A stretch of 64,000 nt of DNA, taken from an uncultured Acidobacteriota bacterium (GTDB taxonomy: Bacteria; Acidobacteriota; UBA6911). A program made the translations under genes and the position numbers. The stretch covers positions 542,632 to 606,631 of the forward strand of contig CAVXIH010000009.1 of NCBI GenBank assembly GCA_963761825.1, written 5' to 3'. The notes beneath the pieces are model-generated. The model was not told the DNA's origin and searched no databases. It saw only the letters and a list, made by a program, of their open reading frames with translations. Below, in pieces: positions 1,975-63,702 of the stretch. The stretch's first letter is position 1. Every line of letters begins with the position of its first letter.

Positions 1975-2097
1975 CACTCCTATGAAAACAAAGGGTTTAT
2001 AGTGAGTGCCTCTATCCCATATTGGGGGCGTCTATAAACCTGTATTTATGCTAATTTATTCTTTTTATTAAGTTTATGCGAATTCATAGCCTAACGG

Positions 2098-2130
2098 AAT
2101 TTCGAGGTTATGGTGACTGTCACCGAAATT
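2098..2130 (-). repeat. REP element, same family, inverted copy
   Basis: aatttcgaggttatggtgactgtcaccgaaatt is the reverse complement of the REP unit. Together with 1903-1974 it forms an inverted cluster in the 5' region of the E1-alpha gene. Confidence 0.7.
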
Positions 2131-2150
2131 ACTTGCATCCTCCGGTGGCA

Positions 2151-3185
2151 ATGGCCTATAAACCCCACGTTGCCCGGCAGGGCTGCCATAATCTCAATGC
2201 TTTGGATGGGAGGTATCCCTTGGAATTGGATAAAAAGACGCTGATTGATTTATACACCACGATGTTGACCATTCGGCGCTTCGAGGAGCGGGCATACCAC
2301 GAGTTCTATACCGGGAACCTATTCGGCTTCGTCCACTCCTATATCGGCCAGGAAGCGATCGCCACCGGGGTGTGCGCACACTTGACCAAAGAAGACCGCA
2401 TCGTCAGCAATCACCGGGGACACGGTCACTGCATCGCCAAGGGTGCGGATATGAAGAAGATGATGGCCGAGATCTACGGCAAGAAGACCGGCTACTGCAA
2501 GGGCAAGGGCGGCTCCATGCACATCGCGGACTTCAGCATCGGCATGCTGGGAGCGGACGGCATTGTCGGAGCCGGGCTTCCGATCGCCAGCGGCGCGGCG
2601 TTCGCCGCTCAGCTCGAAAAAAAAGGCACCATCGCAGCCGTGTTCTTCGGCGACGGAGCCTGCAATGAAGGGGAATTCCACGAAGCACTCAATCTGGCTG
2701 GAATCTGGAAACTGCCGTTGCTCTTCGTGTGCGAAAATAATCAGTACGGGGTGAATACACCGGCAAGCTACGCAATGTCGGCAAAAGACATCACCCGAAT
2801 ACCGGAAGCGTATCACATCAAGAACAATGTCATTTACGGCAACGACGTCGAGACTGTCTACCAGGCGGCGGAAGAAGCCATCGCCATTCTTAGAAGAGGG
2901 GAGGGCCCTTACTTTCTGGAATGCCAGACCTACCGCTGGCATAAGCATTTCCTTTCCAAGGCGCTTGAAGATCTGCGCCCTGCAGAAGAACTTGAGGCAT
3001 GGAAGAAGAAATGCCCCGTGGCGGCATTCGAAACAAAATTGCTTCGCCAGGGAATTTTGACGCCTCCCGATGTTCAATCCATCAACGAAAAGATTATGGC
3101 GCAGATTGAGGAGGCGTGCAGGTTCGCCGTCGACAGCCCTTACCCTCAACCCCAGGATGCCCTGGAAGACGTGTACTCAGCCTGA
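2151..3185 (+). CDS. TPP-dependent 2-oxoacid (pyruvate/acetoin) dehydrogenase E1 component, alpha subunit
   Basis: MLTIRRFEERAY, YIGQEAIATG, GDGACNEGEFHEALNLA and NNQYG motifs typical of E1-alpha. Start chosen downstream of the REP (ORF track opens at 2076). Confidence 0.75.
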   Translation: MAYKPHVARQGCHNLNALDGRYPLELDKKTLIDLYTTMLTIRRFEERAYHEFYTGNLFGFVHSYIGQEAIATGVCAHLTKEDRIVSNHRGHGHCIAKGADMKKMMAEIYGKKTGYCKGKGGSMHIADFSIGMLGADGIVGAGLPIASGAAFAAQLEKKGTIAAVFFGDGACNEGEFHEALNLAGIWKLPLLFVCENNQYGVNTPASYAMSAKDITRIPEAYHIKNNVIYGNDVETVYQAAEEAIAILRRGEGPYFLECQTYRWHKHFLSKALEDLRPAEELEAWKKKCPVAAFETKLLRQGILTPPDVQSINEKIMAQIEEACRFAVDSPYPQPQDALEDVYSA

Positions 3186-12738: not shown

Positions 12739-14325
12739 CTACTTCATGTAGCACAAAACGTCGGTGCGGCCGCGCAGGTCGCGGATCGAAGTCATTCCCA
12801 GCTTCCTCAATACATCAAGCATCTGTTCGTGCCATGCATTCTGGAGATTGATCAGTCTCTGCGTCGCCCAATCCAGGCTCATAAGCTCTATCAATTCGGT
12901 ATCCGTGGAAGCGATTCCTCTCGGGCACCCTCTGCCGCTTTCGCAGGAGGCGCAGCGAACGCAGCCGAGCGCGACCATTTCGGCCGTGCCGATCACGACG
13001 CCATCGGCGCCCAGGGCGATGGCTTTCAGCGCGTCGTAGGCCGTGCGGATCCCGCCCGATGCAATCAGCGTAATTTTGTCGCGAATGCCTTCGGCACATA
13101 GGAACTTGTGAACCTTGGGCACGGCGTACTCGATGGGCATGGCGATGTTCTTCTTGGCGATATCCGGCGCAGCGCCCGTGCCTCCGTAGCTTCCGTCCAG
13201 GTGCACGATGTGCGCGCCGGCGTAATAGCTGCCTACCGCCACCATGTCTACATCCGTCGGCGTCGAAACCTTCACGCTGACGAGGCAGTGCGGATTTACC
13301 TCTTTAATCCAATCGAGGTGCTTCTTGTGGTCTTCCACGCTGTAGACGCTGTGAAACGGGAAAGGGCTGAACAGGGCGTTCCCCGGTACCGCGCCCCGCA
13401 TGCGCGCAACGGCGGGGGTGTTTTTGTCGCCAAGGAGATGCCCGCCCAGGCCGGGTTTCGCACCCTGCGCATACTTAAACTCGACGATTCTCACGCGCTG
13501 GATGGTTTCTTCGCGCACCCCGAACAGACCCGTCGCCACCTGCGTAATCATGTGGTCATCGTAGGGTTTGAGTCGGTCGGGATAGCCTCCCTCGCCCGTG
13601 CAGCTGAAGCTGTTCCAGGCTGCGGCCGCGCGAGCCTTGGCCAGGATCGTGTGGATGCTTACAGAACCAAAACTCATTCCGCCGCCGTATACCGGGATAT
13701 CGATATGGACCTGGGGCCGCCCGTCTGCGCGGCGATTGAGATCCAGGCTCGTGTCGATTTCCACCGGGGTTGCGTTTCTGAGTCCCCTCTTTTTTTCAGC
13801 AACCACGCTCTGCGATGTGGTATCGAACTCAGGCACTTCGAATTTGAACCGGATCCTGTCAAAGCCTCCGCCCGAATCGCCGCGGCGGTATTCCAGGTGC
13901 GGCGGAGGGATATGCCCCGTCTCGGCTTCATGCCAGGTAGAAAGGATCAGATCCCCGGTCCAGCGCGGATCGCCAAGGCACTCCACGTTGGGATTCAGCC
14001 GCAGCACCAGCGCCTTCGTGGGGCACTGGCTGATGCAGTAATGGTCGGTTTTAGCGCACGCAGGCCCGATGCAAAGATGGTCTTGCGGCCGGAGCATATA
14101 GGTGTAGCCTTCCGGCTTGACGTGCACACCCTGAGGGCAAAGTTCGGCGCAGCGCCCGCATGCGATGCAGCTCGCCAGACGGGTGACCTTGTATTTGCCT
14201 ATGGCATTGCGATATCGCTCGGGGACCGGGCGAACTTCCCGGCTGATGGTTTCCTGCGGCTCATCGCTGTGCCCGGGAGTCTTTTGAACCTCGAGGGGAA
14301 CATTCACTTCGGCAATGGTTGTCAT
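12739..14325 (-). CDS. glutamate-synthase domain-2 (GltB2, FMN-binding) family protein with N-terminal Fe-S cluster domain
   Basis: CIACGRCAELCP and CISQCP ferredoxin motifs. GltS FMN/3Fe-4S region signature LDGSYGGTGAAP and ASGGIRT. 528 aa, intact. Confidence 0.75.
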   Translation of the reverse strand: MTTIAEVNVPLEVQKTPGHSDEPQETISREVRPVPERYRNAIGKYKVTRLASCIACGRCAELCPQGVHVKPEGYTYMLRPQDHLCIGPACAKTDHYCISQCPTKALVLRLNPNVECLGDPRWTGDLILSTWHEAETGHIPPPHLEYRRGDSGGGFDRIRFKFEVPEFDTTSQSVVAEKKRGLRNATPVEIDTSLDLNRRADGRPQVHIDIPVYGGGMSFGSVSIHTILAKARAAAAWNSFSCTGEGGYPDRLKPYDDHMITQVATGLFGVREETIQRVRIVEFKYAQGAKPGLGGHLLGDKNTPAVARMRGAVPGNALFSPFPFHSVYSVEDHKKHLDWIKEVNPHCLVSVKVSTPTDVDMVAVGSYYAGAHIVHLDGSYGGTGAAPDIAKKNIAMPIEYAVPKVHKFLCAEGIRDKITLIASGGIRTAYDALKAIALGADGVVIGTAEMVALGCVRCASCESGRGCPRGIASTDTELIELMSLDWATQRLINLQNAWHEQMLDVLRKLGMTSIRDLRGRTDVLCYMK

Positions 14326-16770: not shown

Positions 16771-17332
16771 AGGCTGTGTTTTTCCCGGAAAAGCCTCCGG
16801 TCTGCATAGCTGGAAAAGGCAACTGCAAAGGATTTGGGGGATTAGCCCGAAGAGCCTGAATCACCTGATCGCGAATGGCGGCGACCTGGGCTTCCAGCGG
16901 ATCGGAACGATTTTTGCCGGCATCTTCGCCCGTTGCCAGTGCCAGATCTTCCATCGCAGAGCCCGGAAGATAGGAGAGCAGCAAACGCTCGTCACCGAGG
17001 CCGATTTCCTTCAGGATCGACCGAATATAGTCTACGCGCAGCGCGCATCTACGGCTCCCTTCGATATAGTGGCAGTTGTCATCCTGGCATGCGATAACCG
17101 ACACCACGCTGGAGCCGGTTTCAAATGCCTTCAGAACATGTTCAGGCTGCAGCCGCCCTGTGCAGGGAACGATGACTTGCCGGACCGTGCCGGGCAAGTG
17201 CAGGTCCGGGACCACGGGCCGAGCCCGCTTGGCGGAAGTCGTCTCCTTGGGTGGACGCGCGCAATTGGCACATACGAATACCGTAACTCCGGCAGTATTT
17301 TGTGTTGTTTCCACTTCTTGCCCCTCGATCAT
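16745..17332 (-). CDS. MvhD-like iron-sulfur protein (second MvhD-family gene in this operon)
   Basis: VFVCANCA...VPCTGRLQPEHVLKAFETG...VIACQDDNCHYIEG...LKEIGLGDERL. Confidence 0.65.
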   Translation of the reverse strand: MIEGQEVETTQNTAGVTVFVCANCARPPKETTSAKRARPVVPDLHLPGTVRQVIVPCTGRLQPEHVLKAFETGSSVVSVIACQDDNCHYIEGSRRCALRVDYIRSILKEIGLGDERLLLSYLPGSAMEDLALATGEDAGKNRSDPLEAQVAAIRDQVIQALRANPPNPLQLPFPAMQTGGFSGKNTAFGEDDCDE

Positions 17333-17550
17333 TTCTCTCCCCGGCCGATTTCAGTTGGATCCGCAAGGGCGGCATCGGCAGAAACAGCAGAAACGTTGTT
17401 CACGACCGGGTGTGTGCAAAACTCTTCGCACTGAATAACCTCAAGCTGGGGGATTCTTTTCAGTACGCAGGCCTGGTAATGATCGCAGGTCTCGCAAATA
17501 CCGGAATACTTGACCGCATTAGCCATGGCATCCATCCTTTCATCTTGCAT
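17329..17550 (-). CDS. small Cys-rich hypothetical protein (CxxC..C / CxxxC), first gene of the operon
   Basis: GICETCDHYQAC...CEEFC. Probable true start is the internal ATG at about 17535 (MDAMANAV), which has a GAAAGGA RBS. Confidence 0.4.
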   Translation of the reverse strand: MQDERMDAMANAVKYSGICETCDHYQACVLKRIPQLEVIQCEEFCTHPVVNNVSAVSADAALADPTEIGRGEK

Positions 17551-17570
17551 AACTTCCGCAACTTTACCTT

Positions 17571-17588
17571 AGCAAAGGACATGCCAAT
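17571..17588 (-). promoter_or_regulatory. sigma-54 (RpoN) -24/-12 promoter
   Basis: Minus-strand read is TTGGCATGtcctTTGCT. It matches consensus TGGCAC-N5-TTGCW with correct spacing, about 20-45 nt upstream of the first ORF. Confidence 0.65.
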
Positions 17589-17736
17589 ATCAGGGCAGCA
17601 GGAAATTAAATATTCCACCCATTAAATTCAATATCTTGGAATAATCATGAAATCAATTATCGATTAGCCTCACCCCAAACCAAACCCTCCATGGTCTATT
17701 TTATGTACCACTCCGAAAACTTTTTATACCATTTTC

Positions 17737-17763
17737 GGTGACAGTCACCATAACCTCGAAATT
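17737..17763 (+). repeat. REP element, 5' flank of the RAYT gene
   Basis: Exact 27-nt ggtgacagtcaccataacctcgaaatt. Confidence 0.75.
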
Positions 17764-17804
17764 ATTTTTGAAATAAAAAGCGAAGTTGCGAAACATTATA
17801 GATT

Positions 17805-18494
17805 ATGCCGAGACTTCAAAGAGTTGTCATCCCTGGACGCCCGCATCACGTTACTCAGCGCGGCAATCATCGCCAAAGAGTGTTTTTTTCTGATAGGGAC
17901 TATGAAACCTACCTGACCCTTATGCGCAAGTATTTCCGGAAATATGGAGTAGATTTGGCTGGCTACTCGCTGATGCCCAATCATGTCCACCAGGCGGCTA
18001 TACCAGCTCTGGAAAACTCTCTAGCTAAAGGAGTTGGGCTGCTACATAACGATTTCTCGAGGTGGCAGCAGATCCAGCGGGATCAGACTGGGCATCTCTG
18101 GCAAAACAGGTTCTTTTCAAATCCGATGGATGATTCCTATTTTTGGATGGCGCTGCGCTATATTGAGCTCAATCCAGTGCGGGCCGGATTGGTGCGGAAC
18201 GCTTGGGATTGGCCATGGTCCAGCGCCCGCGCCCATGTTACAGGTATGGATGAAACCGGGATGCTGAACATGGAGCTATGGGGAAAGTATTTCGACAAAA
18301 TCCGATGGAAGGAATTCCTCTTGGAGGGATTGAATAAAACTGATGAGATAGATCTTATACGCGTGGCGAACAGAACAGGACGTCCCATTGGCAGTGAGGA
18401 TTTTATTCGGAGCCTGGAAAAGATGACAGGGCGGTCGCTTTTTCCGAAAAAAAGAGGGCCAAAACCCAGATTGGGCAAAAAACTATCCCAGTAA
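17805..18494 (+). mobile_element. REP-associated tyrosine transposase (RAYT; IS200/IS605 TnpA-like Y1 HUH transposase)
   Basis: PRLQRVVIPGRPHHVTQRGNHRQRVFF N-terminus, HUH motif PNHVHQAA, flanked by inverted REP units. 229 aa, intact. Confidence 0.8.
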
Positions 18495-18524
18495 TTTCGA
18501 GGTTATGGCGCCTGTCACCGAAAT
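18493..18524 (-). repeat. REP element, 3' flank of the RAYT gene (inverted)
   Basis: aatttcgaggttatggcgcctgtcaccgaaat followed by accaccaggcgga, the same spacer as at 1930-1947. It is the 1925-1974 module in reverse complement with a gtcac to gcgcc variant. Confidence 0.7.
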
Positions 18525-18560
18525 ACCACCAGGCGGAATTTGAGAGGGGGTTAGAGGAGG

Positions 18561-20369
18561 TTAGAGGAGGTTGTAGTGGCTCAGCTTTTTTCTTAGGGTA
18601 ACGCGACTCATTGCCAGCAGGTCTGCCAGTTCGCGCTGGCTGTATTGGTTGGAATCCAAAAGGTAGCGCAGAAGCGTTTCCTCCACCGATTCCAGCAGCG
18701 CATCACGAATACCGGAAGTATCATTGCGGGAAACCAGGAAGCGGACGACCGCCTGGCGAAGTTCGGACTGTGGGTCCGCAACTTTTTCGGCATCGGGATT
18801 GGTCAGAAAATCTGGTCGGCCTTCCCTTATTTCCTCGGGTATCAGTTCAAGGGACACGGTATTGTCGGGGCTCATGACCACTGCCCTTTCAATGCAGTTT
18901 TCCAGTTCCCGTACATTTCCCGGCCACGAATGCGCCAGCAATGCGTCCAGCACTTCACGCGGCACCTGCGTAACCTGGCGATTTGCCTCGCGATTGTACT
19001 TTTCAAGAAAGTTATCCACCAGAAGCGGAATATCCTCGCGGCGATCGCGGAGCGGAGGCAGATGAATAGGGATGACGTTCAGCCGGTAGAACAGATCCTG
19101 GCGAAATCGTCCGGCCCGTATCTCCGCTCGCAGGTCCCGTCCGGTCGCGGCCACGATTCGGACATCCACCGTTATGGTTTTGCTCGATCCCACAGGTTCC
19201 AATTGATGTTCCTGCAGCACGCGCAGGAGCTTAACCTGAAGGCGCGGACTCATTTCGCTCACTTCATCGAGGAAGAGAGTCCCGCCTTCGGCCGTACGGA
19301 AGCGCCCTTCGTAATCGCGCACAGCCCCGGTAAAAGCGCCCTTCACATGACCGAACAGCTCTGTTTCAAGCAGGGTTTCCGGAAGCGCGCCGCAGTTTAC
19401 CTTAACGAGCGGACCCGCAGCTCGGTCGCTGTTATAATGCACGACATTCGCGATGAGTTCCTTGCCCGTGCCCGTCTCCCCTGTAATAAGGACCGACGAA
19501 CGCGAACGGGCGGCAGTCGCCGCCAATCCCAGCAGGCGCCGGATAGCCGCGCTTCCCCCTACGATGCTGTCGACTCGGTAGGTCCGCCGCAGTTCCTCGC
19601 CTCGCCGTGTCATCCGGTCGAGGTCCCGTTCTTTCCCCGCCTCGCGTTCCTGAACAGCGACTCCCTCATCCAAATCCAGAGCCTGCGGCGTCCCGATCGC
19701 GGCACTGCGCCCGGCGGCTTTGTGTATCGTAAGCGCCCTCTGCCCGTTGGACAGGGACACCTCGATGACAACCTGCGTAATGTGCCGCACTTTCGCCAGG
19801 AAAACTTCCGTGTGTGCTTCGGTTTCGATAAGCCAATACGCAAGGGTGGAAAGGTCATAGAGACGAGGGCACAAGTGCCCGAACAGTCGCGCGACCCGAT
19901 TCTCATCGCCCCAAAGATCCAGCATTCCGGTAAGCGAATCAAAAACATAGTTTGCCGACTGGCCTCCGCGCGTGCCAACTTCGATCAGAGCCTGCTCCAA
20001 CCGTGAGGGATCCGACGGGTCGGCAATATGGACCGGCGCATGCACTGCGTTGCGCGCAGGGTCATCAAAAAATTTGAGAAACATCTCGTCGGAATTTCCT
20101 TTGCCCGAGGAGAAGCAGTCGATAAGCGAAAACCGTCCGGGAGACATGAGCCTGGCGTACTTGGACGCTATGGTTTGAGGCGAACGGTTGAAGCTCACGT
20201 AAACAACCGGAATCCCACCCTGCTCGCAGGATTGAACAAAACTGGAGATGAAATGATCGCCGGCCACGCCGGAGTCGATTTCCCACACCAGATTATCCCC
20301 GGTGATCACTCCGCCAATCGCTTTGTCCACTTCGGGTATGCCCGTAGTGGGCTTATATCGAAATGCCAT
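18561..20369 (-). CDS. sigma-54-dependent transcriptional activator (bEBP) with N-terminal degenerate KaiC/RecA-like domain and C-terminal Fis-type HTH
   Basis: AAA+ sigma-54 interaction domain with GETGTGKE, GAFTGA and the LQVKLLRVLQE arginine-finger region. C-terminal HTH RELADLLAMSRVTLRKKL. N-terminal TGIPEVDKAIGGVITGDNLVWEIDSG resembles KaiC/RadA but has no Walker-A GKT. Confidence 0.8.
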   Translation of the reverse strand: MAFRYKPTTGIPEVDKAIGGVITGDNLVWEIDSGVAGDHFISSFVQSCEQGGIPVVYVSFNRSPQTIASKYARLMSPGRFSLIDCFSSGKGNSDEMFLKFFDDPARNAVHAPVHIADPSDPSRLEQALIEVGTRGGQSANYVFDSLTGMLDLWGDENRVARLFGHLCPRLYDLSTLAYWLIETEAHTEVFLAKVRHITQVVIEVSLSNGQRALTIHKAAGRSAAIGTPQALDLDEGVAVQEREAGKERDLDRMTRRGEELRRTYRVDSIVGGSAAIRRLLGLAATAARSRSSVLITGETGTGKELIANVVHYNSDRAAGPLVKVNCGALPETLLETELFGHVKGAFTGAVRDYEGRFRTAEGGTLFLDEVSEMSPRLQVKLLRVLQEHQLEPVGSSKTITVDVRIVAATGRDLRAEIRAGRFRQDLFYRLNVIPIHLPPLRDRREDIPLLVDNFLEKYNREANRQVTQVPREVLDALLAHSWPGNVRELENCIERAVVMSPDNTVSLELIPEEIREGRPDFLTNPDAEKVADPQSELRQAVVRFLVSRNDTSGIRDALLESVEETLLRYLLDSNQYSQRELADLLAMSRVTLRKKLSHYNLL

Positions 20370-20580: not shown

Positions 20581-22044
20581 TTGCTAAGAGCCTTGAATTC
20601 GCGACCATTGCGGGTACTTACGTCACTTTTTATTCTGGCCGTGCTCACATTCACGGCGCACTCGACCTTTCACGTCAATGCCACCACGGCGGGTTTCATA
20701 TACCTGCTGCTTGTGCTGGTGATCGCAAGCATCTGGGGATTTATTGAAGCGTCCATCCTTTCCATGGCAGCAACACTCGTATTCAATTACTTTTTTTTCC
20801 CCCCGGTTGGAACGTTCAACATCGCCGATCCGCACAATTGGGTTTCCCTGTTCAGTTTCCTCGGCACATCGTTGATTGCCAGCCGTCTTTCGACCAAGGC
20901 GAAGCGAAGAGCTTTAGATGCAATCGAGCGGCAGCAGGACATCGAGAGATTGTACACATTCAGCCGCGCCATTCTTCTAATCGATAATTCAGAGCCGTTT
21001 GGGACGCAGCTTATCCGAAAGCTGGGGGACATTTTCCAGTTGAGCGCTGCATCCCTATATGATCGGCGGACCGGAGATTTTCACCGGGCCGGCTCATCAG
21101 AACTCGATGGCATGGATGACAGGTTGCGCGAAATGGCGTTGCACGGCACCGCATATTCGAACAACCAATCCGGGTGCGTTTTAACCGCTGTCCGTCTGGG
21201 GTCGGAACCTATTGCAAGTCTCGCCATCCAGGGCGCACGGATGCCGGATTCTGTTCTACAGGGGATCGCGAACCTTGTGGCGATTGGTTTGGAAAGGGCA
21301 AGAGCACAGGATCTTGCGCGGCAGGTTGAGGCCGCGCGACAGAGCGAGCAGTTAAGAACGACGCTCATCGACGCCATGGCTCACGAATTCAAGACGCCTC
21401 TCACATCCATAAAGGCTGCAACCACAGCGCTGCTGGCCGATCCCGATCAACTAAAGGAGAATCGCACGGAATTGCTCAATATTGCGGATGAGGAAGCAGA
21501 GCATTTGCGGCAGCTCATCGATGACACGGTAGCCATGGCTCGTCTTGACACCGCACATATAGAGATCAACCCGCAAATTTCGGATATTATTGAAATTGTC
21601 CATGAAGTGGTTTATTCAATGAGAACCGAGCTTGAGGGGCGTCCTCTGGAGATATCCAACGAGGAACCGATCCCGGAGATTGCTTTTGACCGTCGGTTGA
21701 TAAAGCTCGCGATCAAACAACTGATCGACAATGCCGTCAAATATTCGCCCGCAGGAACTCCGCTGGAGATTCAGGTGCGGCGGGGCAATGATGTAATCGA
21801 CGTGGAATTGACGGATCACGGCGAGGGAATACCCGAAAAGGAGCAGCGTCACATTTTCGAAAGGTTTTTCAGAAGCCCTTCTGTGCTGCATCAGATACCG
21901 GGCTCCGGTCTCGGGCTGAGCATCGCCCATGGCATTCTGCGTGCCCATCATGGAGATTTGACGGTACAAAGTCGGCCGGGCAAAACCACATTTCGTTTAA
22001 CCTTGCCTGCAAACTATGGAGGAGAAGCCTTTGAGCGCGGGTAG
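20581..22044 (+). CDS. kdpD: KdpD C-terminal half: membrane (DUF4118-like) domain, GAF, HisKA and HATPase sensor histidine kinase
   Basis: 4 TM helices, HEFKTPLTSI H-box, N/G1/G2 ATPase boxes. It lacks the KdpD N-terminal sensor domain, which is encoded separately at 30439 and 31527. Confidence 0.75.
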   Translation: MLRALNSRPLRVLTSLFILAVLTFTAHSTFHVNATTAGFIYLLLVLVIASIWGFIEASILSMAATLVFNYFFFPPVGTFNIADPHNWVSLFSFLGTSLIASRLSTKAKRRALDAIERQQDIERLYTFSRAILLIDNSEPFGTQLIRKLGDIFQLSAASLYDRRTGDFHRAGSSELDGMDDRLREMALHGTAYSNNQSGCVLTAVRLGSEPIASLAIQGARMPDSVLQGIANLVAIGLERARAQDLARQVEAARQSEQLRTTLIDAMAHEFKTPLTSIKAATTALLADPDQLKENRTELLNIADEEAEHLRQLIDDTVAMARLDTAHIEINPQISDIIEIVHEVVYSMRTELEGRPLEISNEEPIPEIAFDRRLIKLAIKQLIDNAVKYSPAGTPLEIQVRRGNDVIDVELTDHGEGIPEKEQRHIFERFFRSPSVLHQIPGSGLGLSIAHGILRAHHGDLTVQSRPGKTTFRLTLPANYGGEAFERG

Positions 22045-22729
22045 AATTCTCGTAATTGACGATGAGCCTCAAATTCGGCGTCTCATGCGCACAACGCTGA
22101 TCAGCGCCGGATATGAAGTGGACGATGCCAGAACGGGAGAAGAGGGACTTGAAAAAATAGGCGAGTATCATCCGGATCTGGTATTGCTTGATATTAACAT
22201 GCCCGGAATGGGTGGTTTGGCAACCTGCGAAGCTCTCCGGGCAGACAAAAACATAGCCATTATCATGCTCACCGTCCGCGATTCTGAAGCGGATAAGGTT
22301 GCCGCACTGGATGCGGGCGCCGATGATTTCGTCACGAAACCATTCAGCACGCCGGAGCTTTTGGCGCGAATACGTGCAGCCCTCCGGCGAGTGCCGGTCT
22401 CGCAGGCGTCCCCCGCGAGAATTCAGATCGGCAGTCTCGTCATCGACTTCGTAGCCCGGACCGTCTCAAAAGGCGACAAACCGACACACCTGACACCCAA
22501 AGAGCTGGAATTGCTTCGCTACCTTTCCCAGCATGCGAATCAGGTAGTTTCCCACCGCGAATTGCTGCAGGCCATTTGGGGCCCGGATTACGGCAACCAG
22601 GTCGATTACCTTCGAGTATTCATTAAAAACCTGCGCAAGAAAATAGAGTTGAATCCCGATCACCCTGAATACATCACGACCGAGCCTTGGGTCGGATATC
22701 GATTCAACGGCCTTCCGGAATCTTTATGA
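22016..22729 (+). CDS. kdpE: KdpE OmpR-family response regulator
   Basis: Receiver RILVIDDEPQIRRL...LLDINMPGMGG plus winged-helix output domain. Overlaps the kinase stop. Confidence 0.8.
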   Translation: MEEKPLSAGRILVIDDEPQIRRLMRTTLISAGYEVDDARTGEEGLEKIGEYHPDLVLLDINMPGMGGLATCEALRADKNIAIIMLTVRDSEADKVAALDAGADDFVTKPFSTPELLARIRAALRRVPVSQASPARIQIGSLVIDFVARTVSKGDKPTHLTPKELELLRYLSQHANQVVSHRELLQAIWGPDYGNQVDYLRVFIKNLRKKIELNPDHPEYITTEPWVGYRFNGLPESL

Positions 22730-22807
22730 TTTCTTCATTAATTTTCCATCATTTCTTTATGTCATCTCCATGATTTCTTTAGCTCGCCCGGCGTATGCTT
22801 TTACGCC

Positions 22808-25081
22808 ATGAATAGAAACGGGAAAGTCCTGTCAAATCCTGATCGATCTGCCACAACGAAGGTGGTGGTTGCCAGCACCGTAATGCTTTCATTCATATCC
22901 ATGTGGCGCGCTGCGGCCATCGTTCTTAACGACCTTGGTTCCAGTGTGTACTACGCCGGAGGCATTGCAGAGCAGGCGATCGGGCAGAGCGCCCCGTGGT
23001 TCATCATGGGAGTGATGCTGTTCAGCTTTGCTGTCCGATCCGTGTATATGGAAAGCAGCAGCATGTTTGTGCGCGGGGGCGTGTATGTTGTGGTCCGGGA
23101 TGCCATGGGCTCGTTTGTTGCGCGGCTCTCCGTATCCGCTCTGCTGTTCGACTATATTCTCACGGGTCCCATCAGCAGCGTCAGCGCCGGTCAATATCTC
23201 GGGCGGCTTATCAATGAAGCGGCCGCATCCACAAGATTTGGAATACAGGTTTCGCCGGATTTTTTTGCAGTCGTATTCGCGATTGCCGTGACGCTTTATT
23301 TCTGGTGGCAGAACATCAAGGGAATTCCCGAGTCCAGCACTAAAGCGCTGCGCATCATGCAGGTAATGACCGTGATGGTTGTCATGTTTCTTGTGTGGTG
23401 TTCCGTTACCTTGATCGCCCGGGGACCGTCTCAAATGCCGCCGGCGCCCACGCCTGCGAATCTGCAATTCAATCAGGAAAGCCTCGGATGGTTTCACGGG
23501 ACAGTTTGGCCGACGATTCCAATGATAGCGATCATCATCGCATTCGGCCACTCCATGCTTTCCATGAGCGGCTTTGAAACGCTGGCCCAGATATATCGAG
23601 AAATAGCGGCCCCAAAGCTGAAAAACCTGAAGATTACCGGGACGGTTGTCTGCATTTATGCCGCAATGTCCACCGGCCTTATTACTCTCCTGGCGGCGAT
23701 GATCATTCCCGATCAAGCCAGGAAGAACTACGTCGACAACCTACTCGGCGGACTGGCCATGCATCTGGCCGGCCCGGAACTGCTGCGGCTCGCTTTTCAC
23801 TTCTTTGTGGTCGTGGTCGGAGTCCTCATCCTTTCAGGCGCGGTCAACACCTCCATCATCGGCGCGAATGGCGTCATGAACCGCGTAGCCGAAGACAGGG
23901 TCCTCCACAAAGCATTTCAAAAACCGCATCCGCGATTCGGCACGACCTATCGAATCATCAATCTGGTCACGGCGATGCAAATCATCACGATTATCGCGAG
24001 TCGCGGCCATATTTATCTGCTCGGCGAAGCCTACGCCTTCGGGATCGTTTGGAGTTTCTTCCTGAAAACTCTGAGCGTGCTTGTGCTCCGATTTCAGCGG
24101 AACGATCAGGGATACAAGATGCCGCTGAATATCAGAATCGGCCGTCTGGAAATTCCTCTCGGACTCGGGATCACAAGTCTGGTGTTATTTGTGGTGGCTT
24201 TGGCAAATATGTTTTCAAAGAGGATCGCCACCCTTTCGGGCGTTTCGTTCATGATTGTTTTATTCCTCATATTCACAATCTCCGAGCGAATGATGCGCGC
24301 CAAAAAGCAGGACAGCGGATTGGAGCAGTTTAATCTGGATATCCGGAGTGATGTCTCTGCAGAAACGATGCACGTGCGGCCGGGCTGCGTACTGGTGGCG
24401 GTTCGGGATCACAACCGAATGCAGCACCTGCAATCGGTTTTGAATAAAACAAGCGTTCGCAAGCACGACATCGTCGTCATGAGCATGCGCAGAGTCTCTA
24501 AAGCGGGCGCAGGCGAATATGAGTTGAGCAGGAATCAGCTTTTTGCGGAATATGAGCAGGTTTTATTTTCGCATGTTGTCAGCATGGCGGAGAAAGAGGG
24601 CAAACCGGTGGAGCTTGTCGTTGCTCCAGGCTTTAATCCCTTCGATGCAATGGTGCAAACCGCCTCGAGATTGAAGGCCTCGCGCCTGGTCACGGGAGTT
24701 TCGGCCCGGATGGCTTCGGAAGAATTGGCGCGCAGGATCGGGCGTGCATGGGAAAGATTGCCGGAACCCCGACATCCATTTTCTCTGGAAATCATTTCGG
24801 AAGGCCGGCCATCGATTTTTGTCAACCTGGGACCGCATCCGCCGCGACTCTGGCCGGGAGATATTGATCTCGCTCACAGGATGTGGCTCGAGTTAAGCGC
24901 GAAATTTGGCTCGAGGCTGCATCATCGGGATGTCATCGGCGTCGCACTGCGCCGCATGAACAAAGACATGCAATCTCTGCAACGGCAAAATGTGATGTCC
25001 GACATGTCTGAAGAACTATTGCACCACCCCGAACTGCAATCGACCCAAGATCAGAAAAACGAGGATCCCGGCCTTGCATAA
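22808..25081 (+). CDS. APC-superfamily amino-acid/cation permease fused to a C-terminal UspA-like domain
   Basis: About 12 TM helices (residues 1-480), then a cytoplasmic Usp-like alpha/beta domain (VLVAVRDHNRMQHL...LVTGVSAR). 757 aa, intact. Confidence 0.6.
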   Translation: MNRNGKVLSNPDRSATTKVVVASTVMLSFISMWRAAAIVLNDLGSSVYYAGGIAEQAIGQSAPWFIMGVMLFSFAVRSVYMESSSMFVRGGVYVVVRDAMGSFVARLSVSALLFDYILTGPISSVSAGQYLGRLINEAAASTRFGIQVSPDFFAVVFAIAVTLYFWWQNIKGIPESSTKALRIMQVMTVMVVMFLVWCSVTLIARGPSQMPPAPTPANLQFNQESLGWFHGTVWPTIPMIAIIIAFGHSMLSMSGFETLAQIYREIAAPKLKNLKITGTVVCIYAAMSTGLITLLAAMIIPDQARKNYVDNLLGGLAMHLAGPELLRLAFHFFVVVVGVLILSGAVNTSIIGANGVMNRVAEDRVLHKAFQKPHPRFGTTYRIINLVTAMQIITIIASRGHIYLLGEAYAFGIVWSFFLKTLSVLVLRFQRNDQGYKMPLNIRIGRLEIPLGLGITSLVLFVVALANMFSKRIATLSGVSFMIVLFLIFTISERMMRAKKQDSGLEQFNLDIRSDVSAETMHVRPGCVLVAVRDHNRMQHLQSVLNKTSVRKHDIVVMSMRRVSKAGAGEYELSRNQLFAEYEQVLFSHVVSMAEKEGKPVELVVAPGFNPFDAMVQTASRLKASRLVTGVSARMASEELARRIGRAWERLPEPRHPFSLEIISEGRPSIFVNLGPHPPRLWPGDIDLAHRMWLELSAKFGSRLHHRDVIGVALRRMNKDMQSLQRQNVMSDMSEELLHHPELQSTQDQKNEDPGLA

Positions 25082-25692
25082 ATTTTCCATTCATTCCGGG
25101 CAATCGGCTTGCCGATTCCTTAATTAATTCTTCATAACTTCTCCATTGCTTCTTCCCGGCTTTGCTACGAGATCTTCAGGGGTGACGGCGTATGCTTTTT
25201 CCATGAGGAGCGTGCATATGCAAGTTTCTTCTGATTTGAAAATGTTCGTGGGCAAAAAAACTGAGATGAATAAACGGAGTTCTAACATTCCGAATTGTTC
25301 GCGACCGGTGGTCGTTTTATTCACATCTGCGAACCGGACGCTAAAAGCATTAGAGTCGGCACGCAGCCTGGCGAAGACGCTTTGCCGCCCTATCGTGGTT
25401 CTGGCGACACCGGTCATTCCCTACCCTCTACAGCTTGAAGAACCGCAGGTTCCCTTTGATTTCACAATAAGACAGTTCGCTGAAACGGCCGAAAAATTTC
25501 CCGAAAATATTTCGGTTGTCGCCTACCGCTGCCGCGACCGGCTGGAGACGCTGAAACAGGTTCTCCCGCCCGATTCTCCCGATCCTTATCGGCATCAGGA
25601 AAAGATGGTGGCCAACCCGCGATGAGCGATTAGCCAGGAAACTGGGGCGCGCCGGCTATTCGGTGACTGTAGTCGAAACGGAATGAACCACT

Positions 25693-25776
25693 ATGCTCGA
25701 CCTTTTTTATCTCGCAATTGGAACGGCTGTCCTCCTGATTTTTTGGGCCTTCACAAAAGCGTGCGACAAGCTGTAG
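25693..25776 (+). CDS. 27-aa hydrophobic micro-peptide (MLDLFYLAIGTAVLLIFWAFTKACDKL), KdpF-like, unannotated
   Basis: Single TM helix, located 10 nt upstream of kdpF. Not in the ORF track because it is under 60 aa. Confidence 0.35.
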   Translation: MLDLFYLAIGTAVLLIFWAFTKACDKL

Positions 25777-25785
25777 GAGATTGCA

Positions 25786-25869
25786 ATGGAATACATCATC
25801 GCCGGCCTGGTATCCATCGGCCTGTTTGTTTACCTGATTTATGCGCTTCTGAAGCCGGAGCGCTTCTGA
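25786..25869 (+). CDS. kdpF: KdpF, K+-transporting ATPase small subunit
   Basis: MEYIIAGLVSIGLFVYLIYALLKPERF. GGAGA RBS. Immediately upstream of kdpA. Confidence 0.8.
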   Translation: MEYIIAGLVSIGLFVYLIYALLKPERF

Positions 25870-25879
25870 GGAACACACC

Positions 25880-27650
25880 ATGACAAGCCAGGGTATCCTC
25901 CAGATACTTTTTTATTTTGCCGTGCTTCTTGCGCTGACGATGCCTCTCGGTTCGTACATGGCGCGGGTTTATGAAGGGCGAAGGACCTTTCTGCATCCCG
26001 ATCCTCCGTCCACTGGAGCGCCTGTTGTATGCCGCTGGGCGGAGTCAAGGAGGGGGCTGAGCAGCGCTGGACTCAGTATGCAGCTTCGCTTCTGGCCTTC
26101 AGCTTGTTTGTTTTGTTTTCACCTATGCCTTGCAGCGCTTCAGGGAATCCTGCCGCTGAATCCGGCGGGTTTCGGAGCAAAGCAGGCAACGCCGGATCTT
26201 TCCTTCAATACCGCCGTCAGCTTCATGACAAATACGAACTGGCAGGCTTATGGCGGCGAAACGACCCTGAGTTATTTCGTCCAGATGGTCGCGCTGACCG
26301 TGCAAAATTTCGTTTCGGCCGCGGCCGGGATGGCCGTTGCCGATAGCGCTGATCCGGGGATTTGCCCGGCGGCAGCAGAACACGATCGGCAATTTCTGGG
26401 TCGATCTGTGCGGGGAACCGTATACATCCTGTTGCCGCTTGCATTGGTTGGCGCCCTTTTGCTCTGCTCGCAGGGCGTGGTTCAGAACTTCAGATCCTAT
26501 ACGACGGCCACCACGCTTGAGGGTGAAACGCAGACGATCGCGCAAGGTCCGGCGGCGTCCCAGATCTCGATCAAGCAATTGGGCACAAATGGCGGAGGCT
26601 TTTTCAACGCCAATTCCGCGCATCCGCTCGAAAATCCGACGCCGCTTTCCAACTTCCTCGAGAGCTCTGTTCATCCTTCTGATACCCGCCGGCCTGGTTT
26701 ACACATTCGGGAAGATGGTGAAGGACACCCGGCAGGGCTGGGCCGTATTTGCGACGATGAGCCTTCTGTTTTTGGCCGGGGTCTTCATCTGCTATCCGGC
26801 GGAGCAGTCGGGCAATCCCAATCTCGCCCGACTGGGCGTGCAGATGGAAGCAACGGCAGACGCAGCCCGGCGGCAATATGGAAGGGAAGGAAGTCCGTTT
26901 CGGCATTGCGCCGTCTGCTCTATGGGCCGTGGCGACTACCGACGCCAGCAACGGCAGCGTCAACAGCATGCACGACAGCTATACGCCGCTCGGCGGCCTG
27001 GTCCCGCTGTTCAATATACAGACCGGCGAGGTCATCTTCGGCGGCGTCGGCGCCGGCCTCTACGGGATGCTTCTGTTTGCCATCATTGCCGTATTCATCG
27101 CCGGCCTGATGGTTGGACGCACGCCGGAATATCTGGGCAAGAAGATTGAGGGCAAGGAAGTCAAAATGGCGATGCTGGCTCTGATCGCATGCGCCGCCAG
27201 CATTCTGGTCTTCACGCGCGGTCAGCTCCCAAATCAGCTTTGCCCAAGGCAGCTACTGGAATGCGCCGGGAGCCAGCCGCCGCCAATCTGAACAATAGCG
27301 GCCCGCACGGCCTCTCAGAGATTCTCTACGCCTATTCGAGCGGCACCGGCAACAATGGCAGCGCCTTCGCAGGACTGAACGCCAACACTCCCTGGTACAA
27401 CCTGACGATCGGATTGGCAATGCTCATCGGGCGTTTCCTGATCATCATTCCTATGCTGGCGGTGGCCGGAAGCCTGGCAACCAAGAAAGCCGTGCCTGCC
27501 ACAAGCGGCACCCTCCCGACACACGGACTCCTGTTCGTCGGCCTCCTGGCTGGAACTGTAATCATCGTCGGAGCGCTGACATTTTTCCCGGCACTATCGC
27601 TGACACCGATTGTGGAGCATTTTCTGATGAATGGCGGCCGGCTCTTTTAG
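25880..27650 (+). CDS. kdpA: KdpA, K+-transporting ATPase subunit A (disrupted by 3 or more frameshifts)
   Basis: [31 protein letters not shown]-terminus and [10 protein letters not shown]-terminus. Pieces 25880-, 26337-, 26878-, 27189-27650 are collinear with KdpA. Confidence 0.75.
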
Positions 27651-62546: not shown

Positions 62547-63702
62547 ATGCGGTTCAAGACACTGCCGATTTTCCTGGCCTTTTTTCTCATGGGGCTCGCC
62601 GATGCAATGGGACCCATGTCGGATGGGGTGAAAAAGCAGTATGAGCTGAGCAACCTGGTGGCGACGCTACTGCCGTTTTTCGTCTTCATCGCTTTCGCCA
62701 TTTTCAGCATCCCCGGAGGGCTTCTGGCGGCGCGCATCGGCAAGAAGAAACTGCTGCTCCTGGGGCTTGGGCTCAACGCGGCTGCACTGCTGGTGCCATC
62801 GCTTCAAATGCCGAGTTTTGCGCTTCTGCTTGCGTGCATCTTTCTCCTCGGCGTCGGCACGACGCTTCCTTCAGGTAGCCGGCAATCCCATCATGCGCGA
62901 TGTGAGTCCGGAGGGCGCCTATAGCCGGAATCTCAGCTTTGCCCAGGGCATCAAAGGTATCGGCAGCACGCTGTCAACCTATCTGATCAGTGCGCTGGCC
63001 GGCCTTGCTGTTTTCCAGGGCTTGGGATGGCGCGGCGCATTCCCGCTGTTTTTCGTGCTCATGGCTCTGGCCTTCCTGTCGGTTGCATCGTTGAAGATTG
63101 AGGAGACCAAGGCGGACAAGCCTCCCAGCCTCGCATCCAGTCTCAGGCTGCTAAAAGAGCCCATTTTCCTTCTCGCCGTGGTCGGCATTTTCCTTTATGT
63201 CGGCGCCGAGTCCTGCATGTCGCGTTTTCTCAATCCCACGCTGCAGGCTTTTGGCATGGATGCTCAAGCTGCCAACAAATGGGGACCGACTCTCTTCTTT
63301 TTAATGCTCACTATCGGCCGGCTTTTGGGTGGTGCAATTCTCACCATCATGAGCCCGCGCAACTGTTTTCGTCTCTCGGCACTGCTGGGAGTCTTGGGCG
63401 CGGGCTCTCTCATGACGGGAGCAGCCGGCGTGGCGATTCCGGCTATCATTGCCGCGGGTCTGGGTTTTGCCAATATCTGGCCCATGCTCTTTTCAATCAC
63501 AATCGAAAATAAACCGGAATGCGCAAACGAGCTCAGCGGCCTGATGTGCATGGCCATCTCCGGCGGTGCGCTTGTGCCTTTGCTCATGGGGTGGCTGGTG
63601 GATATGGATTGGAAGGCAACAGCCTTCATCGTGCCCTTGGCTTGCTTTGTGTATCTGCTGCTGCTTTCGCTAAAGGGAGAGCAGCGGCCTACAATGGTTT
63701 AA
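62547..63702 (+). CDS. MFS transporter (sugar permease-like), one frameshift at about 62900
   Basis: Two frames (62547-62924, 62767-63702). 12 predicted TM helices. Confidence 0.55.

Follow-up and report, generated by a model that had tools for sequence, protein, structure and literature searches.

A sigma-54 promoter cannot open without an activator, and the control of nitrogen metabolism is known mainly for Proteobacteria (NtrBC, PII), Firmicutes (TnrA, GlnR), Actinobacteria (GlnR, AmtR), cyanobacteria (NtcA) and methanogens (NrpR, a nitrogen repressor that responds to 2-oxoglutarate). The Acidobacteriota, Planctomycetota and Verrucomicrobiota/Kiritimatiellae are abundant phyla of soil, sediment and wastewater, and in the open-access literature we found no nitrogen regulator described for any of them, the anammox Planctomycetota included. 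Inactivated KaiC-like (“iKaiC”) domains, including DUF835 and MEDS, are archaeal signaling modules according to PMC5847659 (citing Makarova et al. 2017). Here we describe a 64,000-nt stretch of DNA from an uncultured Acidobacteriota bacterium (contig CAVXIH010000009.1, positions 542,632 to 606,631; “the window” below is this whole stretch), in which the gene for a bacterial enhancer-binding protein (bEBP) with a predicted inactive KaiC-like input domain stands just upstream of a candidate -24/-12 promoter and of an operon resembling glutamate synthase (GOGAT). We consider it likely that the parts form one mechanism: a sigma-54 promoter, a bEBP acting on a tandem dyad upstream of it, and a KaiC-like domain that gates the activator according to nitrogen status.

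Judged by its predicted domains, the 602-aa protein is a bona fide bEBP. Pfam recognizes Sigma54_activat (PF00158, E 2.4e-68, residues 269-436) and AAA_lid_14 (E 1.3e-28), and the translation carries the AAA+ motifs Walker A (GETGTGKE), Walker B (LFLDEV) and GAFTGA (nt 19340-19323), the last in no other protein of the window. A first-pass annotation of the same DNA had named the nearest upstream gene in the same orientation as a bEBP with GAFTGA and a Fis-type helix-turn-helix (HTH); GAFTGA is found again, and the HTH scores just below the Pfam cut-off, which orthologs pass (L069, for example, at 42.8 bits). NCBIfam models (NifA, AtoC, NtrC and others, with the AAA+ core of RtcR among the matches) cover the AAA+ core or the AAA+ plus HTH, all below their equivalog cut-offs; for TIGR01818 (NtrC), which has its cut-off at 558.6, the score is 338 bits and the match is confined to the AAA+ and HTH regions. 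In Pfam the 602 residues yielded no domain of the receiver (Response_reg), GAF, PAS or V4R kind. The adjoining kinase and regulator genes belong to a unit divergent from the bEBP gene (20581-27109, plus strand), which encodes a DUF4118-HisKA-HATPase kinase, an OmpR-type regulator, a 757-aa protein of the amino-acid permease family and KdpA; because the DUF4118-HisKA kinase and OmpR-type regulator lie beside KdpA, we read them as a Kdp-type system and not as the partner of the bEBP, which agrees with the earlier suggestion of signal-dependent rather than two-component control.

The N-terminal part of the protein has a KaiC/PH0284/FlaH-like RecA fold, an assignment that we regard as secure for a modeled structure. 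Single-sequence searches gave Pfam KaiC (PF06745) at 23.6 bits for the whole protein and 15.8 bits (E 0.009) for the domain alone, with a cut-off of 26.6, and PH0284 at E 0.025 in a phmmer search of the PDB; an NCBIfam search of the isolated domain stayed below threshold. The profile of a family alignment (A2; 26 domain sequences, 38-88% identical to the query) matched KaiC (E 2.7e-7), PH0284 (E 3.7e-7) and also SSO2452 in the PDB, the homology to KaiC-like proteins covering the N-terminal ~70-96 residues. An AlphaFold (AF2) model built from A2 reached pLDDT 91.6 and pTM 0.90, and its best Foldseek match was again PH0284 (E 3.7e-12, TM 0.70), followed by FlaH, KaiC and SSO2452, with KaiC-like matches ranging over E 1e-10 to 1e-12 and TM 0.65-0.72. 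The isolated domain gave no GAF or PAS signal in Pfam, which leaves the KaiC/RecA-like resemblance seen at first pass standing; its length of 170 aa does not stand, as the domain extends to about residue 232. Neither DUF835 (PF05763) nor MEDS (PF14417) matched the isolated domain at E <= 0.1 in Pfam, and tblastn found no second KaiC-like domain in the window.

The catalytic residues of the fold are lost. In HMMER alignments DSGVAGD takes the place of the Walker A motif (GPGTGKT in PH0284, sGtGKt in KaiC), and the family consensus at the P-loop is WE-x-[DE]-[SA]-G, without the Walker A Lys/Thr, so that the missing lysine remarked on earlier proves to be a family trait; at the catalytic Glu pair, VSFNRSPQT aligns with vtfEEsPq of KaiC and ALEEHPVQ of PH0284, the family having N-[RSKAHV] there with N61 invariant. 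Since Walker A Lys/Thr and the Glu pair are lost throughout the family, the domain is, as far as its motifs tell, a pseudo-ATPase, and an active ATPase or a clock-like autokinase was ruled out for the same loss. The Walker-B-like strand (YVFDS) is retained. Across A2, 42 columns are invariant (including those of DCF[ST]xGKG, FDSxTGM, CPxLYDL and RHxTQV), and AYWxxE..AHS is a further conserved segment; conservation of this strength in a predicted pseudo-ATPase points to a retained site or interface.

The domain recurs widely and on different outputs. Residues 1-264, used as a query for homologs, retrieved 473 proteins; among 1.84 billion cluster representatives, searched exhaustively with a profile, 1143 matched at E <= 1e-3 (95 at E <= 1e-30); and a scan of 185,579 species genomes found relatives in 311, from which the best 80 loci were kept for analysis (loci are labeled L001 and onward). 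A sigma-54 AAA+ domain follows the KaiC-like domain in 73 of these 80 best loci: directly in 18 Acidobacteriota loci (proteins of ~596-614 aa), and with a GAF domain in between in Planctomycetota, Verrucomicrobiota, Kiritimatiellae, Brocadiaceae and Sumerlaeota (mostly ~765-810 aa). In Nitrospirota, Desulfobacterota and some Proteobacteria the domain instead precedes an XRE HTH and a cupin. Distant members (P0199, P0228, P0254, P0190, P0226, P0219) carry PPDK_N, kinase or DUF835 fusions: the PPDK_N (PEP-utilizing, ATP-grasp) proteins are ~870 aa long, others are fused to PAS/GAF histidine kinases, and P0219, an archaeal-type PAS-DUF835-winged-HTH protein, has a separate DUF835 C-terminal to the KaiC-like domain and lacks the DCFxxGKG segment. 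Given fusions to such varied outputs, the domain behaves, by its architectures, as a portable input module. The regulator family is apparently undescribed and is present across several little-studied phyla: open-access full texts contained nothing joining KaiC, sigma-54 and enhancer-binding protein and no dead KaiC-like domain described on a bEBP or tied to nitrogen control, and a survey of sigma-54 regulons (PMC12316311) mentions neither KaiC nor Acidobacteria. The first-pass description of the input module as uncommon thus fits the literature and does not fit the genomes, with 311 species in several phyla.

The domain might alternatively be a ring-forming or docking scaffold for the AAA+ part, with control exerted through a partner protein or through the amount of activator. 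KaiC, PH0284 and FlaH homologs are established as forming rings, and the working form of a bEBP is a hexamer; several loci have PII genes close by, and the GAF domain of the relatives in the PVC (Planctomycetes-Verrucomicrobia-Chlamydiae) group could be the true ligand sensor. We consider this unlikely, since the XRE-HTH-cupin, kinase and PPDK_N fusions give a scaffold for a hexameric AAA+ ring no role, the 42 invariant positions at 40-60% overall identity speak for a conserved site and not merely a fold, and the Acidobacteriota proteins have no other input domain.

That the domain serves as an input reporting nitrogen status is suggested by what lies next to it. A GOGAT-like, glutamine synthetase (GS), Amt or PII gene is present in 55 of 62 informative loci, usually directly downstream and on the same strand. 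In Acidobacteriota, Sedimentisphaerales and Pirellulales the neighbor is the MvhD/MTHFR-like/GltB-like operon of the window, whose gene order is kept in Acidobacteriota and in many Planctomycetota loci (including Sedimentisphaerales and Pirellulales); the linkage of bEBP and operon is kept where the upstream neighbors differ. Elsewhere we find Amt-PII-GSIII (L032), Amt-PII (L059), GSIII with a full-length GltB (L043), a split GOGAT (L065) and, in a metagenome-assembled genome (MAG) of the anammox family (L069), a Glu_synthase-like gene with CarA and GuaA. The XRE-cupin form adjoins two or three Glu_synthase genes and an NrpR-like gene in Nitrospirota, and Glu_synthase, PPDK_N and glutamate dehydrogenase in Desulfobacterota; the NrpR-like gene beside it adds to the nitrogen-regulation context. 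Because the same domain sits on varied outputs while nitrogen genes are nearly always adjacent, we infer that it would report nitrogen status, and we somewhat favor the view, from this comparison, that nitrogen assimilation is what the family controls, with the KaiC-like domain conveying the signal. In the Nitrospirota clusters (L003-L005) the NrpR-like gene (WHD_RNase_R plus NRD1_2) lies within the Glu_synthase cluster at about 13131-14185, and in L006 the PPDK_N gene of the Glu_synthase/glutamate dehydrogenase cluster beside the XRE-cupin form is a stand-alone gene, in which tblastn likewise found no second KaiC-like domain.

The operon of the window itself is best read, from its domains, as a putative nitrogen-assimilation (GOGAT-like) operon. 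A glutamate synthase large subunit is made up of three domain types, amidotransferase, FMN and GXGXG; as all three of these GltB domain types are present, the operon looks like a split GOGAT joined with Hdr/Mvh/MetFV-type electron-transfer modules. Its composition suggests a flavin-based electron-bifurcating or ferredoxin-linked glutamate synthase, and none of the eight listed open-access papers that name glutamate synthase, HdrA, MvhD and electron bifurcation together has a title pointing to an enzyme of this kind.

The same modules feed a different explanation, namely that the KaiC-like domain reports redox, energy or cofactor status for the electron-bifurcating part and that the nitrogen genes are incidental. 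In its favor, HdrA, MvhD, MTHFR-like and ferredoxin modules abound in the window operon, nucleotides are the classic ligands of RecA-fold domains (which makes an adenylate-charge signal conceivable), and the Desulfobacterota relative adjoins NuoE/F-like genes. We nevertheless judge it distinctly unlikely: Kiritimatiellae, Verrucomicrobiota and some Planctomycetota have Amt-PII-GSIII or GSIII-GltB with no Hdr or Mvh downstream, what the loci of the different phyla have in common is GS, GOGAT, Amt and PII, and the P-loop Lys/Thr needed for canonical nucleotide binding is lost.

The link from the predicted nitrogen-responsive activator to the operon is the promoter. On the minus strand positions 17586-17571 read TGGCATgtcctTTGCT (TTGGCATGTCCTTTGCT when taken over 17587-17571), a near-consensus -24/-12 element in which the core TGGCAT-N5-TTGCT has its GG at 17585-17584 and its GC at 17573-17572, 10 bp apart, and departs from TGGCAC-N5-TTGCW at a single, commonly variable position. 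The element lies 20 nt from the first possible ATG (17550) and 44 nt from the ATG at 17526, for which the predicted leader is ~35 nt. The sequence, its spacing and its distance of 20-45 nt from the first gene are as the first-pass annotation had them. A pattern scan with at most one mismatch recovers the element and does not by itself single it out, with two matches seen in the 64 kb against 2.36 expected; because window-wide counts sit at chance, we take the support for the promoter from comparison. The other match (TGGCACCAGCAGTGCA, 62783-62798, minus strand) runs antisense within ORF 62767-63702, has GTGC in place of TTGC and is probably a chance match.

In an intergenic alignment of the window with the near-identical contig L001 and with L002, a MAG without the transposase described below whose bEBP N-terminal domain is 90% identical to that of the window (tblastn), the -24/-12 element is the best-conserved block and the remainder has diverged; against L002, the conserved blocks are TTGGCATG-CCTTTGC and the ribosome-binding site and start. 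A strong TGGCAY-N5-TTGCW lies 150-300 nt past the bEBP stop on the same strand in nearly every Acidobacteriota locus, and at the same distance in many loci of Planctomycetota, Kiritimatiellae, Verrucomicrobiota and Brocadiaceae as well. Scored strictly, 33 of 67 related loci have the element within 450 nt past the activator stop on the same strand, where the background rate of 0.035 per kb predicts 0.016 per 450-nt window; the nominal P of ~1e-41 is not a true probability, as the loci share ancestry. Some of the loci failing this test have the element farther off owing to insertions (L008 and L009 carry the transposase; in L014 the element is at +507). The comparative signal for the predicted promoter is unambiguous, and we hold that a sigma-54 promoter at 17586-17571 is very probably driven by the 602-aa bEBP. 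In the region 17450-18620 there were three weak sigma-70 matches against 1.9 expected from shuffles, and no intrinsic terminator. That the -24/-12 match arose by chance, with the operon under a sigma-70 promoter or transcribed by read-through and with another target for the bEBP, is most improbable, for although the window-wide count equals expectation and one weak sigma-70-like match lies at 17830-17802, the sigma-70 matches do not exceed the shuffles, the element is conserved amid diverged intergenic DNA and recurs after orthologous bEBP genes across phyla, and an opposite-strand transposase between the bEBP gene and the operon makes read-through unlikely.

A motif search in 17 Acidobacteriota promoter regions, anchored on the -24 element, yielded a tandem dyad at -150 to -105 from the -24 TGG (cTGGTAtAaA..T.T.CCA, then TG..AAtAaA...Ta.CCA) in all 17. 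In the window the promoter-proximal dyad (TGGTACATAAAATAGACCA, 17710-17692) is the sole exact TGGTA-N11-CCA within 64 kb. Over 14 non-redundant promoters the best dyad scores average 8.0 of 10, compared with 6.14 +/- 0.18 (maximum 6.71) in dinucleotide shuffles, for a consensus that was derived from the very promoters scored. By its position and recurrence the tandem dyad at 17692-17731 is a better candidate for an upstream activating sequence (UAS) than the palindrome proposed at first pass, which pairs at five of eight positions, went unreported by the inverted-repeat search, is not conserved in L001 or L002 and lies only 23-38 nt upstream of the -24 element, and which we therefore set aside. 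Between the UAS and the -24/-12 element, at -78 to -58, an AT-rich dyad is conserved in 17 of 17 loci, at the same position in the window, L002 and L009-L024, and could serve for DNA bending or bind a second regulator; with its GAA...TTC core it resembles the sites of bending proteins or of Rex/Fur-type regulators. No exact match to an IHF site (WATCAANNNNTTR) was seen by eye in the AT-rich spacer.

In five Acidobacteriota loci a strong -24/-12 element also precedes glnK and/or amtB, 3-10 kb upstream of the bEBP gene, so that glnK/amtB and the bEBP would make up a sigma-54-dependent nitrogen island there. A UAS dyad shared with these promoters was sought and gave weak matches (6-7 of 10), which do not support a shared regulon.

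A plus-strand gene for an IS200-like Y1/REP-associated tyrosine transposase (RAYT), overlooked in the first-pass annotation, separates the bEBP gene from the promoter (Pfam Y1_Tnp E 2.9e-11; NCBIfam REP_Tyr_transpos E 1.9e-20). It is flanked by 32-nt arms that are inverted repeats with 94% complementarity, and such a layout, a RAYT gene between inverted copies of a repetitive extragenic palindromic (REP) sequence, is classic for REP/RAYT elements. The window contains five copies of the REP-like repeat (TAATTTCGAGGTTATGGnGnCTGTCACCGAAA) against a chance expectation of none; the three copies away from the transposase are clustered at 1899-1930, 1944-1975 and 2097-2128. L001, L008 and L009 also carry the transposase, and the remaining Acidobacteriota loci (L002, L010-L024) lack it. 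It sits between the bEBP stop and the UAS, one REP arm ending a single base from the distal dyad, and both the bEBP gene and the UAS are left intact; since the bEBP would act in trans on the UAS, the insertion should leave regulation unbroken.

Taken together, the small-ORF/MvhD/MTHFR-like/split-GOGAT/GltD-HdrA operon would be transcribed from the conserved sigma-54 promoter at 17586-17571, and the required activator would be the 602-aa bEBP encoded just upstream, as its domains and the synteny indicate. Its Fis-type HTH would bind the tandem dyad (17692-17731) ~105-150 bp upstream of the -24, from where the protein would reach the holoenzyme over the AT-rich, probably bent, spacer, and the AAA+ ring, with ATP and the GAFTGA loop, would remodel the closed complex. 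The N-terminal domain, KaiC/PH0284-like in its predicted structure, would gate AAA+ activity; it could bind a metabolite (2-oxoglutarate or glutamine, for example) or dock a PII-type protein, and the operon would be switched on under nitrogen limitation. The bEBP would then be a functional analog of NtrC that needs no two-component partner.

Several points weigh against this account, which is built from sequence comparison, synteny and predicted structure. On the protein side, HTH_8 scores 20.6 bits (E 3.6e-4) where the cut-off is 22, and no RpoN-box protein is encoded in the 64-kb window, so that an rpoN gene elsewhere in the genome is assumed. On the promoter side, -24/-12 matches in the window are at chance frequency, and the kinship of the loci makes the enrichment statistics overstate their independence. 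For the UAS, the scoring is circular in the way already mentioned, the distal dyad (17731-17712) is half-degenerate in the window (in its 3' half) and the dyad is weak upstream of the glnK/amtB promoters. As for the signal, the GOGAT activity of the operon enzyme is itself read from domains, and with MTHFR-like, MetV, HdrA and MvhD proteins among the operon products the signal could be redox or one-carbon status.

The coordinates of the features are collected in Table 1, and some genes call for comment. The first gene of the operon, a 65-aa Cys-rich ORF with no Pfam or NCBIfam match, carries the motif YxGxCETCDHxxxCxLKRxPQLEVIxCExF at 48-95% identity in most Acidobacteriota loci, and its product could be a regulator or else a small subunit that binds metal or an Fe-S cluster. 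The ATG at 17526 (MANAVKYSGICETCDH...), with AAAGGA before it, is the start conserved in orthologs; a start at the ATG at 17550 is less probable. The GltD/HdrA gene is split into overlapping ORFs in three frames (9972-8713, 8827-8141, 8180-6300 and 6445-5453), ORF 8827-8141 being the C-terminal half of the Pyr_redox_2 domain begun in ORF 9972-8713. At the same position L001 has a single 1500-aa gene, but its bEBP and GltB genes are split; these opposite patterns indicate indel errors of long-read sequencing in the two assemblies rather than genuine pseudogenes. The KdpA ORF of the window (409 aa) covers profile positions 2-251 of 548 and is probably truncated by a frameshift, KdpA being fragmented in L001 too. 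One REP-like copy overlaps the annotated start of an E1 dehydrogenase ORF (2076-3185), which for that reason probably starts later than annotated.

Table 1. Predicted features of the locus, with positions in the window; the last row gives positions in related loci.
Feature	Position	Strand	Basis
bEBP gene, 602 aa (KaiC-like pseudo-ATPase, helical linker, sigma-54 AAA+, Fis-type HTH)	18561..20369	minus	
Inactivated KaiC-like (RecA-fold) input domain, residues 1 to ~232	19674..20369	minus	profile and model
AAA+ sigma-54 interaction domain and lid, residues 269-519	18813..19565	minus	Pfam and motifs
Fis-type helix-turn-helix, C-terminal, residues 559-599	18573..18695	minus	Pfam HTH_8
REP-like 32-nt repeat, transposase-flanking arm	18492..18523	plus	inverted-repeat search
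IS200-like Y1/REP-associated tyrosine transposase gene, 229 aa	17805..18494	plus	Pfam, NCBIfam
REP-like 32-nt repeat, other arm, abutting the candidate UAS	17733..17764	minus	inverted-repeat search
Candidate UAS, two adjacent ~19-bp dyads, consensus TGGTA-N9-TACCA	17692..17731	minus	motif search
Conserved AT-rich dyad, family consensus ATGAAAT-N3/4-ATTTCAT	17644..17664	minus	promoter-anchored motif search
Palindrome of the first-pass annotation, GGAATATTTAATTTCC	17609..17624	minus	5/8 pairs complementary
Sigma-54 -24/-12 promoter element, TGGCATGTCCTTTGCT	17571..17586	minus	pattern match and conservation
First operon gene, 65-aa Cys-rich ORF (C-x2-C-x5-C ... C)	17329..17526	minus	ORF, conservation
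MvhD/FlpD	17332-16745	minus	Pfam
MTHFR-like	16699-15791	minus	Pfam
Glu_synthase-like	15779-14322	minus	Pfam
Fer4 and GltB FMN domain	14325-12739	minus	Pfam
Class-II GATase and GXGXG	12620-10014	minus	Pfam
GltD-like/HdrA-like/ferredoxin gene, four ORFs	9972-5453	minus	Pfam
Second MvhD	5456-4956	minus	Pfam
MetV/DUF5981	4959-4291	minus	Pfam
glnK/amtB -24/-12 elements in related loci	L012:5716, L013:1360, L016:3162, L018:8374, L022:8283		

The KaiC-like bEBP is a concrete candidate for the missing nitrogen regulator of these phyla, and its KaiC-like domain a candidate for a new metabolite- or partner-sensing domain that would add an input-domain class to the bEBP repertoire. A broader proposal, which we put forward tentatively and as possible rather than probable, is that the dead KaiC-like domain is an unrecognized nitrogen sensor and that its bEBPs are master nitrogen regulators across Acidobacteriota, Planctomycetota (including the anammox Brocadiaceae), Verrucomicrobiota/Kiritimatiellae and Sumerlaeota; if so, other lineages would couple this sensor to repressors of the XRE-HTH-cupin type, to histidine kinases and to PPDK_N enzymes. 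With their conserved layout, UAS, AT-rich spacer and -24/-12 element offer ready probes for electrophoretic mobility shift and reporter assays, and the operon, with a split GOGAT joined to MetF/MetV/HdrA/MvhD modules, is of interest in its own right.

Among described systems, NtrC (GlnG) of the NtrBC pair is alike in being a sigma-54 activator with AAA+, GAFTGA and Fis-type HTH (the HTH just under the Pfam cut-off in the window protein), in the tandem upstream sites ~100-150 bp from the -24/-12 element (predicted in the window) and in its nitrogen-assimilation targets (GOGAT-like in the window; GS, Amt and PII in the relatives). It differs in that the bEBP of the window has neither a receiver domain nor a cognate kinase, its input being the inactivated KaiC-like domain, and scores far below the equivalog cut-offs of the NCBIfam NtrC models. 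One-component bEBPs of the NifA/NorR/FhlA type have an N-terminal domain that gates the AAA+ part, as would the window protein, and the PVC relatives resemble them further through the GAF domain between KaiC-like domain and AAA+; the window protein has no GAF, and the KaiC-like domain would be an additional or alternative input. RtcR, a bEBP with a CARF domain, likewise has as its input a divergent nucleotide-binding-type alpha/beta domain in place of a receiver, GAF or PAS domain, but that domain is a CARF and not a RecA/KaiC fold, and the RtcR regulon is RNA repair.

With PH0284, SSO2452, FlaH/ArlH and the KaiC CI/CII domains, the domain of the window shares the predicted fold and the Walker-B-like hhhhDS strand, and with PH0284 also a D-x-F-[TS]-x-G-x-G motif; unlike these KaiC-like RecA proteins, it lacks the Walker A Lys/Thr and the Glu-Glu pair, falls below the Pfam gathering score for KaiC and is fused to transcription-factor outputs. 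The iKaiC domains (DUF835, MEDS) are alike in being, by the account in PMC5847659, dead KaiC-like domains used as signal-transduction modules, and the distant family relative P0219 carries PAS and DUF835; the domain described here differs in being bacterial, in sitting on a sigma-54 AAA+ and in being tied to nitrogen-assimilation genes. The general idea of a dead KaiC-like signaling domain is therefore not new; for its fusion to a bEBP and its putative link to nitrogen we found no earlier description in the open-access literature.

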